A stretch of DNA of 6,221 bases, taken from contig JAWBON010000069.1 in assembly GCA_038826135.1 (NCBI GenBank), positions 1-6,221 of the forward strand, in the 5' to 3' direction. The number at the start of each line of letters is the position of its first letter. The first letter of the stretch is position 1. Source of the DNA: Candidatus Odinarchaeota archaeon (GTDB lineage: Archaea; Asgardarchaeota; Odinarchaeia; Odinarchaeales; Odinarchaeaceae). The notes under the pieces were generated by a model. It was not told where the DNA came from. It made no database searches and saw nothing but the letters and a program-made list of their open reading frames with translations. Shown here piece by piece: positions 15 to 6,221 of the stretch. The position numbers and the translations under genes are program-made.

Positions 15-419
15 CTAATCTAATCGATTTATCAATTCTTCAACTCTCTCTCTAACTTCATCGCGTATTTTTCTAGCCTCTTCTAAGTTTACAGCCTCTT
101 TAAAATCTTTTATTTTCCATTCAACTGTTTTTTCAGGCGGGGCTGAAGGGCAGGATTCAATGCAGCCCATTGTCACTATTAAAGCAGCCTCTCTTATCAT
201 TTCATATGTTAATTTTTTCGGTGTCTGAGTTGTTAAATCCACGCCGATTTCTTTCATGACTTTTACAGCTGTAGGATTTAATAATTCTCCTTTTTCAAGA
301 CCTGCACTGAACGCTTTATAATCAGGGTTCTTATTTAAAATATTGAAGAAAGCTTCAGCCACCTGGCTTCTTCCAGTATTCTCTCGACATACGAATAAAA
401 TCTTTTTCATATCTATCAT
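15..419 (-). CDS. arsC: Arsenate reductase / LMW protein-tyrosine-phosphatase-fold protein (ArsC family)
   Basis: P-loop ILFVC-RENTG-RSQ (CX5R with conserved Asn), AEAF, SAG, and the TMGCIESCP cysteine pair (C86/C90) typical of thiol-cascade ArsC. It also has the W-x-I-x-D acid loop and a C-terminal 'RKIRDEVRERV' helix. The real start may be the second ATG at 410 (MKKILFVC). Arsenate reductase versus phosphatase activity cannot be proven from sequence. Confidence 0.85.
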   Translation of the reverse strand: MIDMKKILFVCRENTGRSQVAEAFFNILNKNPDYKAFSAGLEKGELLNPTAVKVMKEIGVDLTTQTPKKLTYEMIREAALIVTMGCIESCPSAPPEKTVEWKIKDFKEAVNLEEARKIRDEVRERVEELINRLD

Positions 420-492: not shown

Positions 493-1251
493 TTGGCTGA
501 AGCCGGCTTTCTCCCATTAGGTATTGAAGGTCTAGACGCTGCGTTAGGCGGTGGTGTTTTGAAGAACGGGATAGTTCTTATCTCCTTCGAACCAGGGTCT
601 GATGAATGGGCTTTCGGGTCAGAGATTATAAGAAACAGTTTAATTAGCGATGAATACGTTATTCACGTGGATTATGATCACGCGCCTGATTATTACGTTA
701 ATAGTATTGTAGGGTTAGGTGTTGAATCTTATAGTGCCCGCGATAAGCTTAGAAAAGAATATGATGCTGGAAAGGTAAGGTTTATTGACTGTTTTACAGC
801 GGAATCATCACAGGATAAGGTTAAACCAACAGCTTTCACAGTGATTTTAGATAACCCTTATAATCTCTCTAAACTGTTATTCACTATGAAGCAGGTTAGA
901 GAGTCTATTCCACACAGATCTGTTGTTAAATGGGTTTTCTCGAACATAACATCTCTGAGCATTAATCTTGCAGTCCAGGATATTGTTCGCTTCTGTCGAT
1001 CAGCTTTCAGGATGCATAAACAATTTAATGATCAAGCAATCTACTATGTTAACAGGGGCGCTCACCCGCCTGAATTCTTATCTCTTATATACCAGTTGGT
1101 GGATGTTGTAGTGGAGTTGAGAAATAAAGAGGTGGGTAACAGAGTGATGCGTTTTCTAAGAGTTGTTAAAAACCAGTTTAAAGAGCACATTGCATCCGAC
1201 CTAGTGTATAAAGTGGATAAGGGGAGGATTATTATAAGCTTATTGAAATAA
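493..1251 (+). CDS. KaiC/RAD55-like RecA-superfamily ATPase domain protein, predicted catalytically inactive
   Basis: The N-terminal 'LGIEGLDAALGGG' signature, 'VRFIDCFT', 'QLVDVVVEL' and 'RFLRVVK' follow the single-domain archaeal KaiC-like (COG0467-type) pattern over the full length. Walker A reads FEPGSDEW, the catalytic EE position reads YD, Walker B reads WVFSN, and the KMRG motif reads KNQF. TTG start with an upstream SD-like sequence. Confidence 0.8.
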   Translation: MAEAGFLPLGIEGLDAALGGGVLKNGIVLISFEPGSDEWAFGSEIIRNSLISDEYVIHVDYDHAPDYYVNSIVGLGVESYSARDKLRKEYDAGKVRFIDCFTAESSQDKVKPTAFTVILDNPYNLSKLLFTMKQVRESIPHRSVVKWVFSNITSLSINLAVQDIVRFCRSAFRMHKQFNDQAIYYVNRGAHPPEFLSLIYQLVDVVVELRNKEVGNRVMRFLRVVKNQFKEHIASDLVYKVDKGRIIISLLK

Positions 1252-1264
1252 TTTAAGTTTAAAA

Positions 1265-2902
1265 GTGATTTTTATGAGCGCGGATCTTGAAACACTAGCC
1301 GTCAACCTGAAGAACCTTGGGGACTCTGTGAAAATAATGTTTGAGAAAGCTTCGAGTATAATCCCTGAATCATCTGAAGCATTAGAGTTTATTAAGCTTC
1401 TATTAAACGATGTTGAAAAACTAGGATTAGAGTTAAAGCTCTCCGTTGAATCCTCAAGCGGTATAAAAGGGATTTTCGGCGCTAAAAAAAAGTATGCGAA
1501 AACACTGGGGGAGAAAATTAATAAACTGGAGGCCAACATTCTTGAAGGGCAGGTTAAAGCCTACAGTTACTATACTGATTATTTAACCAGTTTTGAAGGA
1601 GTGCTTCACGAAATAGAAAGAGACTACGAGCTTGTTAAAGATGAGAGTGTTAAGAGGAAAATGAATTGGAGCAGTCTGGTTAATATTAAACTTTCTATTG
1701 AAAACCTGAAATCAGTTAATTCGAATCTTAGCGATCGGATACTTAAATTGAAGTCTTCTAAAACTTTTAACATATCTGAACTGGTGGATTCAACTGACAG
1801 TATTTTAAAATGGCGTGGTGAAATTGAAAATTTAAAAAAAAGCCTGGAAGAATTACAGCGGAAACTAGCTTTCAGAAACATTCTCTTAGCGAAGATAATG
1901 GATATTCAGGGAAGCGTTGAAAAACAGAATGTTGAATTCTTTAAAACGATTCAAATAGATTTTTACGGGTTTCTTGAGAAATTAACCTCTCAAGTAACAG
2001 CGGAGAGAACCGATGACGTCTACTTGGAGGAGACTCTTCAACTATTAGATCCTATTAACACTTCTTTTAAAAATATTGCAGAAATAATCACGTCGCTCCA
2101 AGACGCGGGAATACCTTTAAACATAGTATTAGAGCAGTCTGATATCAAAAACGCTTTAACTCTTTTTAAAATAATACTGGAAAAATTTAGAATAGGCTTC
2201 AAAGAGTATATTGAACAAGAATATCTTTTCGTCGATAAGCTTAAACTAGCATGTTTAGAGCTTCACCCTGTGATTAAGAGTATTATAACCTACCTTGATA
2301 AACTAGGCGAAGCGCATAAAAATCTCAGAAACCTTATCTTAGGTGTAATCTCATCCTGGCTGATTAACTTTAAACAGAAAGGCGGTTGGGACGCTCTTAA
2401 AAAACTTTGCATCATATTAGAAAACTTTCTGTTAAACCATTATCCAGCGATTAATGAATGTATTAGAAATAGGATGCGGGGTGTGAACCCTAACACGATA
2501 CGTGGAGCCGCCTTATTTCAAAACTGTATACCCAGCGAATACCTTAAGGAACAATTCATATATGACACTATTCTACCTGTGATATTGAAGAACGAGGGTG
2601 TTGATGTGTTGATGAATGTTCTTCAAGCTTACGGTGAAAGAGGATGGATTAAACGAGCAGAGATTAAAAATATTTCAAGCGAATACATAGATAACTATCT
2701 TAAAACAACACCGTCTATTAAAATTGTAGACGTTAACGGCTATGAAATTCTGTTTTCACCTGAAATACTGCTTAAAAAAATTAAGAATATTTCCAACGAA
2801 TCTTTATATAACTACTTTAATAAATATGTATCAAACAGCGAACTGTGTAAAAAAATCTCAGAAGAAGTCTTTAAAAAACTATCTCAACAATCTAACACTT
2901 GA
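1265..2902 (+). CDS. Uncharacterised 545-aa alpha-helical/coiled-coil protein with a possible C-terminal winged-helix-like domain
   Basis: Long open frame filling the space between its neighbours (13-nt gap upstream, 34-nt gap downstream). L/I/E/K-rich amphipathic helices run over aa ~5-390. The C-terminal segment has a helix-strand-helix-helix-hairpin pattern (VLMNVLQAYGERGWIKRAEI...EYIDNYL...IKIVDVNGYEILFS). The likely start is ATG 1274, with GTGA at 1265-1268 acting as SD. No family recognised. Confidence 0.75.
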   Translation: MIFMSADLETLAVNLKNLGDSVKIMFEKASSIIPESSEALEFIKLLLNDVEKLGLELKLSVESSSGIKGIFGAKKKYAKTLGEKINKLEANILEGQVKAYSYYTDYLTSFEGVLHEIERDYELVKDESVKRKMNWSSLVNIKLSIENLKSVNSNLSDRILKLKSSKTFNISELVDSTDSILKWRGEIENLKKSLEELQRKLAFRNILLAKIMDIQGSVEKQNVEFFKTIQIDFYGFLEKLTSQVTAERTDDVYLEETLQLLDPINTSFKNIAEIITSLQDAGIPLNIVLEQSDIKNALTLFKIILEKFRIGFKEYIEQEYLFVDKLKLACLELHPVIKSIITYLDKLGEAHKNLRNLILGVISSWLINFKQKGGWDALKKLCIILENFLLNHYPAINECIRNRMRGVNPNTIRGAALFQNCIPSEYLKEQFIYDTILPVILKNEGVDVLMNVLQAYGERGWIKRAEIKNISSEYIDNYLKTTPSIKIVDVNGYEILFSPEILLKKIKNISNESLYNYFNKYVSNSELCKKISEEVFKKLSQQSNT

Positions 2903-2936
2903 AACTTCATAATTAAAATAATAGGCTGGACTGAAT

Positions 2937-4214
2937 ATGCCTGGAAGAGAAATATTAGTTTTACATGTAGGCCAAGGCGGTAACCAGATAGGTTACAATT
3001 TTTGGAAAACAATATGCGATGAACATCATATTGACATAAATAACACTCAGAAGAAGCCTGTTGACGAGGATAAAGTTGATTATAAATCCGTTTTCCTAGT
3101 TGAAGCCCCCGACGGCTTCCATCCCCGAGCGCTCTTCATCGACTTAGAGCCTTTAGCGGTTGAATTCTTGGTGAAAGAGAAAAAGCTTGCATCGTTTTTC
3201 TCAGAAGATCTTATGGTTTTAAGCTATTCAGGAGCTCATAACGTCTGGTCTATAGGCTATCAAACAGGTAAAAAACTGATCCCCGTGATCTTAGAGAAGA
3301 TAAGGGAGACAATGCCTGAAACACTTCAAGGATTTCTAATAATACACACTTTAGGAGGTGGAACCGGCAGCGGCTTCGGCTCCCTGATAACTGAAACTCT
3401 TAAAAAAGAATTCCCTGATAAAGGCATACTTAACTTCAGCATAATGCCCTCCGAAGTTAACGATATAACTCTTGCCCCCTACAACACTGTTTTAAGCATA
3501 AACCATTTATCTAAATTCTCAGATCTTGTAGTATTATTCGACAATACTGCTCTCATGCGGATAGTTAAAGACCAGCTTAACATCCCTATAATAAGACAGT
3601 TCTCTGATCTTAACTTTTTAATCGGCAGAGTTATGGCCTCCATCACAGCATCCCTAAGGTTTCCAGGCCAGCTTAACATGGATCTTATGGAGATGGCTCA
3701 TAATCTTGTAGCATTACCGGAAACAAAATTTATAATACCCTCCGTTGCACCTTTAACTAGAGAAGAGGGTGAAATATCCACGGAACTGGATCTTGTTGAA
3801 AGATGCTTCGACCCAACCCACTACATGGTAAACTGTAGCGGTCAAGGTAAAACACTATCCTCCGTTTTAATGTTTAGAGGAGATATCGCAATAGAGAATG
3901 TTTTCAGCATAATGGGCGATATTAAAACCAATGTTGAATTCGCTCCTGGAGTTCACCCTGACCTAGGCTTAAAATACGGTATGTGTGAGAGCGGCCCTGT
4001 AGAATTCGGTAAAGAAATAACACTTCTAACAAATAACACTATCATCTCGGAACCGTTCAACCGGGTGCTTGAACGCTTCGACTCGCTTTTCAACCGAAAC
4101 TGGTACATTAACCATTACGTTAACTCAGGCTTGTCTAAGACGGGTATGAAAGAAGCCCGCGACAATTTTGAAAAAATCATTAAAATATACAAGGAAATAG
4201 AGGGCTCCGGATAA
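2937..4214 (+). CDS. Eukaryote-type tubulin, OdinTubulin-like (Asgard archaeal tubulin)
   Basis: Tubulin-specific motifs that FtsZ lacks: N-terminal REILVLHVGQGGNQIG, EHHID, PRALFIDLEP, PYN, FDNTAL, DLN, SLRFPGQLNMDL..NLV, APLT and FD. The signature HTLGGGTGSG lies at aa 137-146 (GGGTGSG = 3354-3374), and the C-terminal H11-H12 helices are present. The length, the MPGREIL N-terminus and His393 match my recollection of the structurally characterised Odinarchaeota tubulin (not verified by search). Confidence 0.97.
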   Translation: MPGREILVLHVGQGGNQIGYNFWKTICDEHHIDINNTQKKPVDEDKVDYKSVFLVEAPDGFHPRALFIDLEPLAVEFLVKEKKLASFFSEDLMVLSYSGAHNVWSIGYQTGKKLIPVILEKIRETMPETLQGFLIIHTLGGGTGSGFGSLITETLKKEFPDKGILNFSIMPSEVNDITLAPYNTVLSINHLSKFSDLVVLFDNTALMRIVKDQLNIPIIRQFSDLNFLIGRVMASITASLRFPGQLNMDLMEMAHNLVALPETKFIIPSVAPLTREEGEISTELDLVERCFDPTHYMVNCSGQGKTLSSVLMFRGDIAIENVFSIMGDIKTNVEFAPGVHPDLGLKYGMCESGPVEFGKEITLLTNNTIISEPFNRVLERFDSLFNRNWYINHYVNSGLSKTGMKEARDNFEKIIKIYKEIEGSG

Positions 4215-4233
4215 TTTTCAAGAGGATCCGTAA

Positions 4234-5703
4234 ATGTCGAACAGCAATATAATCGAGGATTTCAATAATACGCTAAATCTTTTAATTCAAAAAATTTTCT
4301 TAAGCATTGAGCATATAATTATTGAAATGCATAGTCTTACCAGCTTACTAGAGAAAAACAATATCAAAATAGATAGTATCCGTGATTTTTTAGAAAAATT
4401 TAAAAAAAACTACATGTCAAACACTGGAAACACAGAGCAAAATTTGAAGGTAATCACCTCAATAGAGGACTTTTTAACATCTTATCACTGGGATGCTCAC
4501 GAATTCTATGACTCCTATAAGAAGCTGGTTGAGTCTTCCACAAGTTTTAAAGAAAGTCTTAAAAACTCTCTCACATCAATTCAAAAAAATATTAATCTCA
4601 TAACTAAAAGCTACGAGGATGAATCTAAAAAACTTATGGAAGAAAACAAGTCTCTTCAGAAAACTGTGAGCGAGATTCAAGCGAAAAACACATCATTACT
4701 AGAAGAAAAGAAAGCTCTCAACTCAAAGCTTGAACAGCTTAAACTCTCATATGATTCTTTAAATAAACAGTTCAACGAGCTTGAAAAAAACTATACCGTG
4801 AGTATTGAGAAAATCAGTAATCTCCAGAAATCTAATATTTCGCTTGAAAACAATCTTAAAACTGTTCAAGACAAATTTGACAAGATTAAAAGCAGTTTCA
4901 ACCAACTATACAACTCGTTTAACAGACTTCCAAGCAATGAACTAAAACTCCCCTCATATATTATTAAAAAATCTGTAAGACCGCCACCTGAGGTTGAACA
5001 GTTAGAAACGCTCTTCAAAAACATAGAGCTTCTAATAGAGCTTGACAATTCTCTTTTATCCTCGTACAGTAATAGTAGAGCTTTCAGTGAAGCCTTATTC
5101 AACAGCAACTACACTCAAATATTAAACCAGGTTTTCAAGAATATCATGGATATCGAGGACCAGGAGCATAATGAAATTGAACGTAAAATATGCGAGGTTG
5201 AAGCCTTAGCTAATGATCCGCAGCATATAAGATACATTCACACCGAGCTTTTTAAACCTTATATTAAAGCCGCTCGGACTCTGTTATCCACGCGGCAGAA
5301 AAAGATGGGTGAAGCCGCCTCTCAACTAATTGAAAAAGTTAAAGAAAAATTGGAAAACCAGGAGCTTAGGAAAATATTAATTCGAAGAACAGGTATAAGA
5401 AACACGGATATAGATGAATGTAGTATTCAAAGCTATGAGATACCTTTAGAAACCGATAATATCGACGCTTCACTGAGAAACCTGGTTGAATCATTAAACG
5501 ATGAAATAGCTGAGAGGAAAAGAGAACTGGTCACAATGTTCTTCGATTCCTGGCGTGAAACCGCTTTACAACTTACAGGGGGAGGGGTTGAAAAAATCGT
5601 TGCATATATTATTTTACTTATAACTAAACGCATACTTGATAAAACCAGTGTTAAAGACTCTGATCTGAGAAAACTGTTTAAGCGGAGCCTAATACTTGTT
5701 TAA
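4234..5703 (+). CDS. Uncharacterised 489-aa protein with a central long leucine-zipper coiled coil
   Basis: Starts 19 nt after the tubulin stop, with SD GAGGA at 4222-4226. An uninterrupted heptad repeat spans aa 134-232, followed by a Pro-rich linker (aa 233-252) and a helical C-terminal domain. No family recognised. Confidence 0.85.
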   Translation: MSNSNIIEDFNNTLNLLIQKIFLSIEHIIIEMHSLTSLLEKNNIKIDSIRDFLEKFKKNYMSNTGNTEQNLKVITSIEDFLTSYHWDAHEFYDSYKKLVESSTSFKESLKNSLTSIQKNINLITKSYEDESKKLMEENKSLQKTVSEIQAKNTSLLEEKKALNSKLEQLKLSYDSLNKQFNELEKNYTVSIEKISNLQKSNISLENNLKTVQDKFDKIKSSFNQLYNSFNRLPSNELKLPSYIIKKSVRPPPEVEQLETLFKNIELLIELDNSLLSSYSNSRAFSEALFNSNYTQILNQVFKNIMDIEDQEHNEIERKICEVEALANDPQHIRYIHTELFKPYIKAARTLLSTRQKKMGEAASQLIEKVKEKLENQELRKILIRRTGIRNTDIDECSIQSYEIPLETDNIDASLRNLVESLNDEIAERKRELVTMFFDSWRETALQLTGGGVEKIVAYIILLITKRILDKTSVKDSDLRKLFKRSLILV

Positions 5704-5758: not shown

Positions 5759-6221
5759 ATGAGTGAAGAGAATGTTACTGAAAAAAGGATCCCTGTCAAA
5801 GGAATTAACTGTGCTAAATGTAGACTGGATATTGAAAATGTTTTAACACGTTTTAAAGGTGTTGAAAGCGCTAAAATGGATTATATGACCGGTAACATCT
5901 CTGTGAAATACGATTATAAGAAGACTGATCTACCTGAAATTGAACGTGTTATTGAAAACTTAGGATATAATATAGCCTATAAAGAGTATGAGACTGGTTT
6001 ATCTAAGTTTAAAAAACTGTTCGGTAAGAAAATAAAACATCTTCGAAAAGTTGACGACCATACTTTTCCCGGCCTAGTCTTAGAAACCTGTAAGCTTACA
6101 GTGCTTTTAGTTTACGAGGAAAACTGCGGGGAATGTGAACGCATAGAATCAGAGTTAAACTCGTTAATCCCTGTTTTTAAAAATAAAGTATACTTCTATA
6201 AAGCCGACTGTAAACTTTCAA
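5759..6221 (+). CDS. Heavy-metal-associated (HMA/CopZ-like) domain fused to a thioredoxin-like domain; 3' end truncated by the window edge
   Basis: Manual translation from ATG 5759 is open to the window end: MSEENVTEKRIPVKGINCAKCRLDIENVLTRFKGVESAKMDYMTGNISVKYDYKKTDLPEIERVIENLGYNIAYKEYETGLSKFKKLFGKKIKHLRKVDDHTFPGLVLETCKLTVLLVYEENCGECERIESELNSLIPVFKNKVYFYKADCKLS. The HMA motif is GINCAKC (Cys at 5810 and 5819), with KGV and LGY hallmarks. The thioredoxin-type pattern is 'KVDDHTF...VLLVY...CGEC...KVYFYKAD' (CGEC at 6125-6136). Confidence 0.85.
   Translation, partial: MSEENVTEKRIPVKGINCAKCRLDIENVLTRFKGVESAKMDYMTGNISVKYDYKKTDLPEIERVIENLGYNIAYKEYETGLSKFKKLFGKKIKHLRKVDDHTFPGLVLETCKLTVLLVYEENCGECERIESELNSLIPVFKNKVYFYKADCKLS

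Follow-up and report, generated by a model that had tools for sequence, protein, structure and literature searches.

A tubulin gene of Odinarchaeia and its two conserved, lineage-specific neighbours, candidate partners of an archaeal tubulin polymer

The stretch of DNA analysed here (6221 bp, hereafter the window), from a Candidatus Odinarchaeota archaeon, makes up all of C69, a small contig in an Odinarchaeial assembly of 1.26 Mb, so that the true upstream neighbour of its genes is cut off. It contains six open reading frames (ORFs), four of which are co-oriented on the plus strand between positions 493 and 5703, where a first-pass annotation had placed them, and include the gene of an OdinTubulin orthologue. 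The association of this tubulin gene with the two genes that flank it, g545 upstream and the coiled-coil gene CC489 downstream, is real and conserved, and has been only partly published. The four genes are:

493 to 1251, plus strand: gene 1, pseudo-KaiC, a KaiC/RecA-fold protein of 252 amino acids (aa) (Pfam PF06745)
1274 to 2902, plus strand: gene 2, g545, a protein of 542 aa from an ATG start (a GTG at 1265 is also open and gives 545 aa)
2937 to 4214, plus strand: gene 3, the OdinTubulin orthologue, 425 aa (Pfam Tubulin and Tubulin_C)
4234 to 5703, plus strand: gene 4, CC489, a coiled-coil protein of 489 aa

The gaps between these genes are 13, 34 and 19 nt, in agreement with the range of 13-34 nt given earlier, except that a start of g545 at ATG 1274 widens the first one to 22 nt. 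This start is favoured over GTG 1265, which opens the ORF, by the orthologues and by the database gene call P0001. For CC489, the database gene call P0006 (464 aa) begins 25 codons 3' of ATG 4234 and the alignment of orthologues backs the longer form.

Gene 3 is indeed an Asgard tubulin. It scores above the Pfam cut-offs (PF00091, 159.9 bits for a cut-off of 33; PF03953, 49.3 bits for a cut-off of 26.6) and matches the solved OdinTubulin (PDB 7EVB) over its whole length (phmmer, residues 1-424, E 7e-259). Aligned to 7EVB, it carries the GGGTGSG signature and the Glu of the T7-loop NMDLMEM. It is 88% identical to the copy of LCB_4 (closed genome G006). The genome to which the window belongs has one tubulin and two true FtsZ genes, and the lack of a second tubulin paralog, first noticed for the window, thus holds genome-wide. 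Like OdinFtsZ2, OdinTubulin assembles into curved protofilaments and into rings that stack (PMC8956254; PMC12583498). The paper describing its structure does not discuss the neighbouring genes. In the literature found, no binding partner of OdinTubulin is reported, as the first-pass annotation had stated; the flanking genes, however, were already remarked on by Santana-Molina et al. 2023 (PMC9871819). In LCB_4, these authors described an upstream gene resembling Prc1 in its N-terminus and Snf8 in its C-terminus and a downstream ATG16-like or “Smc” coiled-coil gene, and they called both specific to the LCB_4 genome. Beyond that description, both genes are found here to be conserved over four Odinarchaeial lineages, and two other members of the locus are added, a nucleotidyltransferase and the pseudo-KaiC.

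Of the seven reference genomes of Odinarchaeia, six yielded the tubulin gene, and two more metagenomic lineages (L015 and L064) were reached through the g545 family. The loci belong to four lineages: genus g1 (four genomes), L015, family f2 (two full copies and the copy of G003, broken at a contig end) and L064. In all four, the core order g545-tubulin-CC489 is kept, g545 being always directly upstream and CC489 always directly downstream of the tubulin gene. The gaps range from -4 to 84 nt (6-84 nt between g545 and tubulin; from an overlap to 29 nt between tubulin and CC489). Across lineages, tubulin is 69-91% identical and its partners about 26-67% (26-67% for g545), synonymous sites being saturated at these distances. 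The arrangements, in which NTase designates the Pol-beta-type nucleotidyltransferase gene, are:

Genus g1 (four genomes): NTase, arsC-like gene (other strand, some genomes), pseudo-KaiC, g545, tubulin, CC489, HMA-thioredoxin fusion
L015: NTase, pseudo-KaiC, g545, tubulin, coiled-coil gene, HMA-thioredoxin fusion, P-type ATPase, ThiF (g545 47% and tubulin 83% identical)
Family f2: NTase, g545, tubulin, coiled-coil gene, then ThiF on the opposite strand (tubulin 72%, g545 27% and CC489 31-32% identical over the parts aligned by tblastn)
L064: NTase, g545, tubulin, coiled-coil gene, aconitase, with gaps of 76 nt and 6 nt and then an overlap (tubulin 69% and g545 26% identical; CC489 orthologue with an hhalign probability of 100, E 6e-45)

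In G003, the seventh reference genome (82% complete), a contig that carries the NTase ends 53 codons into g545, so that the absence of tubulin is an assembly gap. The flanks vary by lineage, with HMA-thioredoxin, ThiF (other strand) or aconitase genes downstream and arsC, DEAD helicase or cation-efflux genes upstream. As the genes outside the segment from the NTase to the coiled-coil gene differ between lineages, the cassette has survived local rearrangement.

The NTase (277-288 aa) is found upstream of the cassette in every lineage and is the only other such gene. Its matches are limited to a weak NTP_transf_2 and an ANT-like N-terminal match, with no specific family. It is located at L015:6127-6966, L013:10506-11372, L014:10404-11237 and L064:6082-6924. 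In the genome to which the window belongs (G000), it lies at the extreme end of contig C22 and points outward (C22:1-837, minus strand, L067). Since this position matches the arrangement of G006, C22 almost certainly abuts the window. It should be emphasized that a role of the NTase as a modifier of the cassette proteins would be pure speculation. The four-gene unit first proposed therefore stands for its g545-tubulin-CC489 core, while the pseudo-KaiC is dispensable and the NTase is the other universal member. The unit should rather be defined as the three genes of this core together with the NTase, to which one family adds the pseudo-KaiC.

In family f2, a protein of 203-224 aa encoded upstream of the NTase (L014:11710-12321 and L013:11492-12166, both on the minus strand) shows faint matches to Pfam SesA. 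In one genome it also matches the N-terminal domain of gamma-tubulin complex GCP proteins (E 0.0085), below the cut-off and probably as noise.

The promoter-like region noticed upstream of the cluster contains a TATA-like element (AAATAATTTTTATAATTG-type / AAATAATTTTTATAAT-type block), at about 433-455 on the plus strand, with the TATA-like box proper at 441-449, and about 45 nt 5' of the start codon of the pseudo-KaiC gene, which is conserved in the four genomes of genus g1. A Shine-Dalgarno (SD)-like GGTGG at 481-485 stands between this element and the start. Genes 2-4 are preceded in most lineages by SD-like motifs of the GGAGG, GGTGAT and AGGAT types, 7-13 nt from their start codons, in keeping with those already noted. 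A sigma-70 promoter scan was set aside as not applicable to archaea. These signals fit a single polycistronic unit, in which the genes would be co-transcribed.

The two partners have a very narrow distribution. A word search of 5.8 billion sequences gave five clusters for g545, and six real ones came from an HMMER scan that went through all 1.84 billion representatives. Two marginal matches of the latter (P0015 and P0016) turned out to be unrelated coiled-coil and GldL proteins. Profile scans of 400 Asgard genomes with g545 and CC489 found no full-length match outside Odinarchaeia. The non-Odinarchaeial matches of CC489 in these genomes cover only the coiled-coil positions (about 10-250), and a search with its conserved C-terminal half returned Odinarchaeial proteins only. 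Apparent g545 matches in the Asgard genus g13 correspond to a HEAT-repeat protein (hhalign probability 12.6%). When tubulin was scanned for in a sample of equal size, two carriers of Loki/Heimdall-type tubulins were identified, G144 (four copies) and G053 (two copies). No full-length g545 or CC489 match was reported for either of them in the profile scans, which indicates that the partners are specific to the Odinarchaeial tubulin clade. This agrees with the published absence of synteny between Asgard lineages beyond AtubAB (PMC13394414). g545 and CC489 are thus present only where the Odinarchaeial tubulin occurs, which, as far as genomic association goes, supports their description as dedicated partners.

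The protein g545 has no Pfam or NCBIfam family above cut-off. Its AlphaFold2 (AF2) model, built from seven sequences, has a predicted local distance difference test score of 90.1 and a predicted template modelling score of 0.73. It consists of long antiparallel helical bundles (residues 6-404), followed by a small winged-helix-like alpha/beta module of helix-strand-helix-hairpin topology (about 448-497) and by terminal helices, in good agreement with the helical/winged-helix protein described at first. The best conserved part starts at about residue 375, extends over the C-terminal module and contains the motifs GERGWIK(R/K) and Y.YF.KY. No transmembrane anchor is seen (maximum Kyte-Doolittle 19-residue window of 1.27), and no internal sequence repeat was detected by hhalign on segments.

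Structural searches with g545 gave little. Foldseek found nothing in the PDB at E <= 1e-3, the AlphaFold database (AFDB) clusters and the Atlas yielded only weak rows, and profile searches of PDB sequences, made for both g545 and CC489, returned only coiled-coil or designed-protein noise. In a wide VIA-align comparison, the matches were generic three-helix bundles below the helical noise (Z about 13), except for a designed bundle of 98 residues (Z 15.2). The most recurrent name is EzrA, which accounts for 27 of the 30 best Swiss-Prot rows (probability up to 1.00, TM-score 0.28-0.29, E 7e-3) and occupies rank 7 among the matching AFDB clusters. However, EzrA 4uxv aligns with a Z of only 9.8 (252 residues, root mean square deviation 22.5), below the helical-protein noise. 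Furthermore, only one of the seven g545 orthologues matches Pfam EzrA (PF06160, E 0.013) and none does so above cut-off. The likeness to EzrA would thus be a weak architectural analogy rather than membership.

The product of the downstream gene, CC489, is predicted to form a helical hairpin and a continuous helix (69-230). Its N-terminal part is a heptad coiled coil (about 4-230); a conserved helical domain (about 235-489) occupies the C-terminal part, and the tail is basic and amphipathic. Between residues 126 and 230, 80% of the a/d heptad positions are hydrophobic versus 12% elsewhere, and Leu occupies 12 of the 30 a/d positions. “Leucine-zipper rod”, the term first applied to the protein, is therefore fair for its N-terminal half. 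The C-terminal half is the more conserved one (53-60% identity within the genus versus 45-49% for the whole protein) and carries motifs invariant in all lineages, RY(I/L)HTE, LIRRTGIR and (D/E)LRKLF...L(V/I), the second of which falls in a low-confidence loop of the model. The pattern of the tail (...LRKLFKRSLILV) is also invariant; it is basic and amphipathic (hydrophobic moment, muH, of 0.5; isoelectric point, pI, of 10.1 for the last 40 aa), although its hydrophobic moment is unexceptional within the protein. No transmembrane segment was found in CC489. Pfam and NCBIfam gave only sub-threshold coiled-coil matches (SMC, ZorA, GAS, EzrA and others), and fold and Atlas searches returned only coiled-coil hairpins or TM-scores < 0.4, the C-terminal domain being poorly modelled. 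An assignment of CC489 as an SMC was rejected: TIGR02169 reaches 27.4 bits for a cut-off of 729 and covers only the coiled-coil residues 23-264, and no P-loop family matches.

The first gene of the cluster has another history. The pseudo-KaiC matches PF06745 over residues 8-248 (46.4 bits for a gathering score of 26.6), but its Walker A reads FEPGSDEW instead of the GTPGTGKT of KaiC, so that GxxxxGK[ST] is not respected and Glu-Trp stands in place of Lys-Thr. Five orthologues all keep this Glu, and the identity is 71-79% in four orthologues. As judged from its residues, this protein is a KaiC fold with a destroyed P-loop and not an active ATPase, as the label “dead KaiC” implied. By contrast, the idea that it is a dedicated tubulin accessory has to be abandoned. 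It is found only in family f1, and the locus lacks it in two of the four lineages (family f2 and L064), the f2 genomes having only generic KaiC/RadA paralogues with 24-25% identity. Moreover, a profile of the Odinarchaeial proteins clearly picks up relatives, at E 1e-22 to 1e-43, in four other Asgard families, all devoid of tubulin (f16-f19; 12 genomes). In G123 (L071:1486-3051 and L073:6054-11220), these relatives form tandem arrays of double-domain proteins of about 520-540 aa with a degenerate Walker A. In a further family (G134, L074:6069-7838), a relative is fused to V4R and DUF5943 and has a Ras-like GTPase as its neighbour. These proteins seem to represent an undescribed pseudo-KaiC family of Asgard archaea, independent of tubulin. 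The distribution and sequences indicate that the pseudo-KaiC of the window derives from this wider family of pseudo-ATPases and that its recruitment to the tubulin locus took place in a single Odinarchaeial family.

The two remaining genes of the window lie outside the unit:

15 to 419, minus strand: arsC/LMW-phosphatase-like gene (LMWPc and arsenate-reductase models)
5759 to 6220, plus strand: start of an HMA-thioredoxin fusion gene (HMA and Thioredoxin domains), with its own AT-rich upstream region

The arsC-like gene is present in this genome and in G006 (L011:10806-11195) and only a 42-aa remnant of it is left in G004 (L010:4992-5114). It was not detected at the G005 locus nor on the L015 gene map. 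This corresponds to a recent insertion or decay inside the genus, which splits the NTase from the putative operon. Only in family f1 is the cassette followed by the fusion of HMA (CopZ-like) and thioredoxin. In L015 (12684-15462), a YHS/P-type metal ATPase lies next to it, which makes this a metal-homeostasis unit.

We propose, with a probability of about 0.55, that g545 and CC489 are lineage-specific proteins associated with the OdinTubulin filament and encoded in an Odinarchaea-specific cassette. The basis for reading the cassette as a dedicated module is genomic: the core genes always occur together, in an invariant order, tightly spaced or overlapping and with SD coupling, and all this has been kept while the partners diverged to about 26% identity and the flanks were rearranged. 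The genes g545, tubulin and CC489 would form one SD-coupled transcription unit preceded by the NTase, and the pseudo-KaiC would be a non-catalytic addition, inserted before g545 in one family and not needed by the core. g545 and CC489 would work with OdinTubulin, a homopolymer that forms rings and spirals. The roles suggested at first for the neighbours (scaffold, adaptor, crosslinker, kinetochore-like linker) stay hypothetical. In this scheme, g545 may serve as a soluble scaffold or regulator made of several helical bundles, with an architecture analogous to that of EzrA, and CC489 probably a parallel coiled-coil dimer whose C-terminal domain and basic amphipathic tail could link the filament to g545, to the membrane or to DNA.

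Several points weigh against this proposal. In the literature found, no interaction between the partners and tubulin is reported; a complex prediction for tubulin and g545, with a seven-row alignment for each, scored 0.00 and was counted neither way. All the lineages belong to one small class, and part of the synteny could reflect inheritance rather than selection. The analogy with EzrA is as weak as described above, and g545 is devoid of a membrane anchor. The C-terminal domain of CC489 is the poorly modelled one. In the window, neither centromere-like repeats nor transmembrane segments point to a cargo.

One alternative, which we consider unlikely, is that the neighbourhood is simply inherited, g545 and CC489 being unrelated Odinarchaea-specific structural proteins whose gene order has not yet decayed in a young class. 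All carriers come from one class (seven reference genomes), and remnants of regional synteny (ThiF, aconitase and radical-SAM genes) are found nearby in different arrangements. However, the immediate flanks have been reshuffled in each lineage around an intact cassette, whose genes overlap or nearly touch even when the partners share only 26% identity, and SD-type coupling signals have been kept.

We likewise rate as improbable a membrane-ring system comparable to FtsZ-EzrA, in which g545 would regulate curved OdinTubulin rings, held on the membrane by the basic, amphipathic helix at the C-terminus of CC489. Among named structural analogues of g545, EzrA comes first, with the single Pfam match of one orthologue, and the published curved protofilaments and stacked rings would suit such a role, as would the invariant pattern of the CC489 tail with its muH of 0.5 and its pI above 10. 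Nevertheless, EzrA has a transmembrane anchor that g545 lacks, helical-bundle matches of such strength are common, and the hydrophobic moment of the tail does not stand out within CC489.

A TubZRC(Y)-like DNA segregation system appears more doubtful still. The C-terminus of g545 would bind a centromere moved by tubulin polymerisation, with CC489 as a TubY-like modulator. This would fit the pI of 8.4 of g545 residues 401-542, their helix-strand-helix-hairpin topology and the weak structural neighbours of this part, which include winged-helix domains of SelB and NOD2, HHH_RecD2 and TrmB/HTH. However, all the TM-scores of this module are < 0.5, no tandem or iterated repeats occur in the window, and the locus is chromosomal and single-copy. 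Furthermore, the tubulin ends at its last helix and, to our knowledge, OdinTubulin has no flexible C-terminal tail like the one by which TubZ holds TubR.

The reading published in PMC9871819, which links an upstream Prc1/Snf8 homologue and a downstream ATG16-/SMC-like gene to eukaryote-like cytokinesis and ESCRT, is very improbable: although the winged-helix-like module of g545 fits Snf8 in kind and f2 orthologues show sub-cut-off Pfam matches to ATG16 and ATG17-like families, these assignments were not reproduced by HMMER, PDB profile or fold searches, as the seven g545 orthologues have no MAP65_ASE1 or EAP30 match at E up to 1, no PRC1/ESCRT-II chain appears in the PDB-sequence profile search or among the fold matches listed, the SMC model covers the coiled coil only (27 bits versus 729) and the ATG matches are of coiled-coil type. 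EAP30 has tandem winged helices; in the model of g545, a single winged-helix-like module is predicted.

OdinTubulin is the best characterised archaeal “proto-tubulin”, and its host organisms are uncultured. Among the readings considered, the preferred one, that of filament-associated proteins, provides two concrete candidates in a conserved three-gene core, which can be tested with the published OdinTubulin assembly assays, and the pseudo-KaiC can be struck off the list of dedicated tubulin factors. If g545 or CC489 binds, it would be the first accessory factor of an archaeal tubulin and would hint at a membrane, DNA or scaffold role. A bolder version, which we put forward only tentatively and for which the odds are rather below even, is that g545, as an EzrA-like scaffold, and CC489, as a coiled-coil tether, are the first archaeal tubulin-associated proteins and shape and anchor OdinTubulin rings. 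If so, Asgard archaea would have possessed, independently of the eukaryotic microtubule-associated proteins (MAPs), a dedicated MAP-like control of a true tubulin.

As for known systems, the TubZ-TubR-tubC (TubY) type III partition system also places a tubulin-family gene beside a few non-enzymatic partners, and a winged-helix partner and a coiled-coil partner are common to it and to the Odinarchaeial cassette. They differ by the chromosomal location of the latter, the lack of centromere repeats and of a C-terminal tail, and the absence of any sequence relation. EzrA, an FtsZ regulator of Firmicutes, resembles g545 by its length (about 560 aa) and its chain of antiparallel helical bundles, and has as its partner a polymer of the tubulin superfamily with curved filaments. 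However, g545 lacks the N-terminal transmembrane anchor and ends in a winged-helix-like alpha/beta module absent from EzrA. In the BtubA-BtubB-BtubC system of Prosthecobacter, the helical protein stabilises the filament, whereas the roles of the Odinarchaeial partners are proposed from their genomic context. Odinarchaeia have a single tubulin and two flanking orphans, neither of which is of the tetratricopeptide repeat/kinesin-light-chain type of BtubC. Nevertheless, both cases present a eukaryote-like tubulin of a prokaryote encoded in a tight operon, a putative one in Odinarchaeia, with a non-tubulin helical protein.

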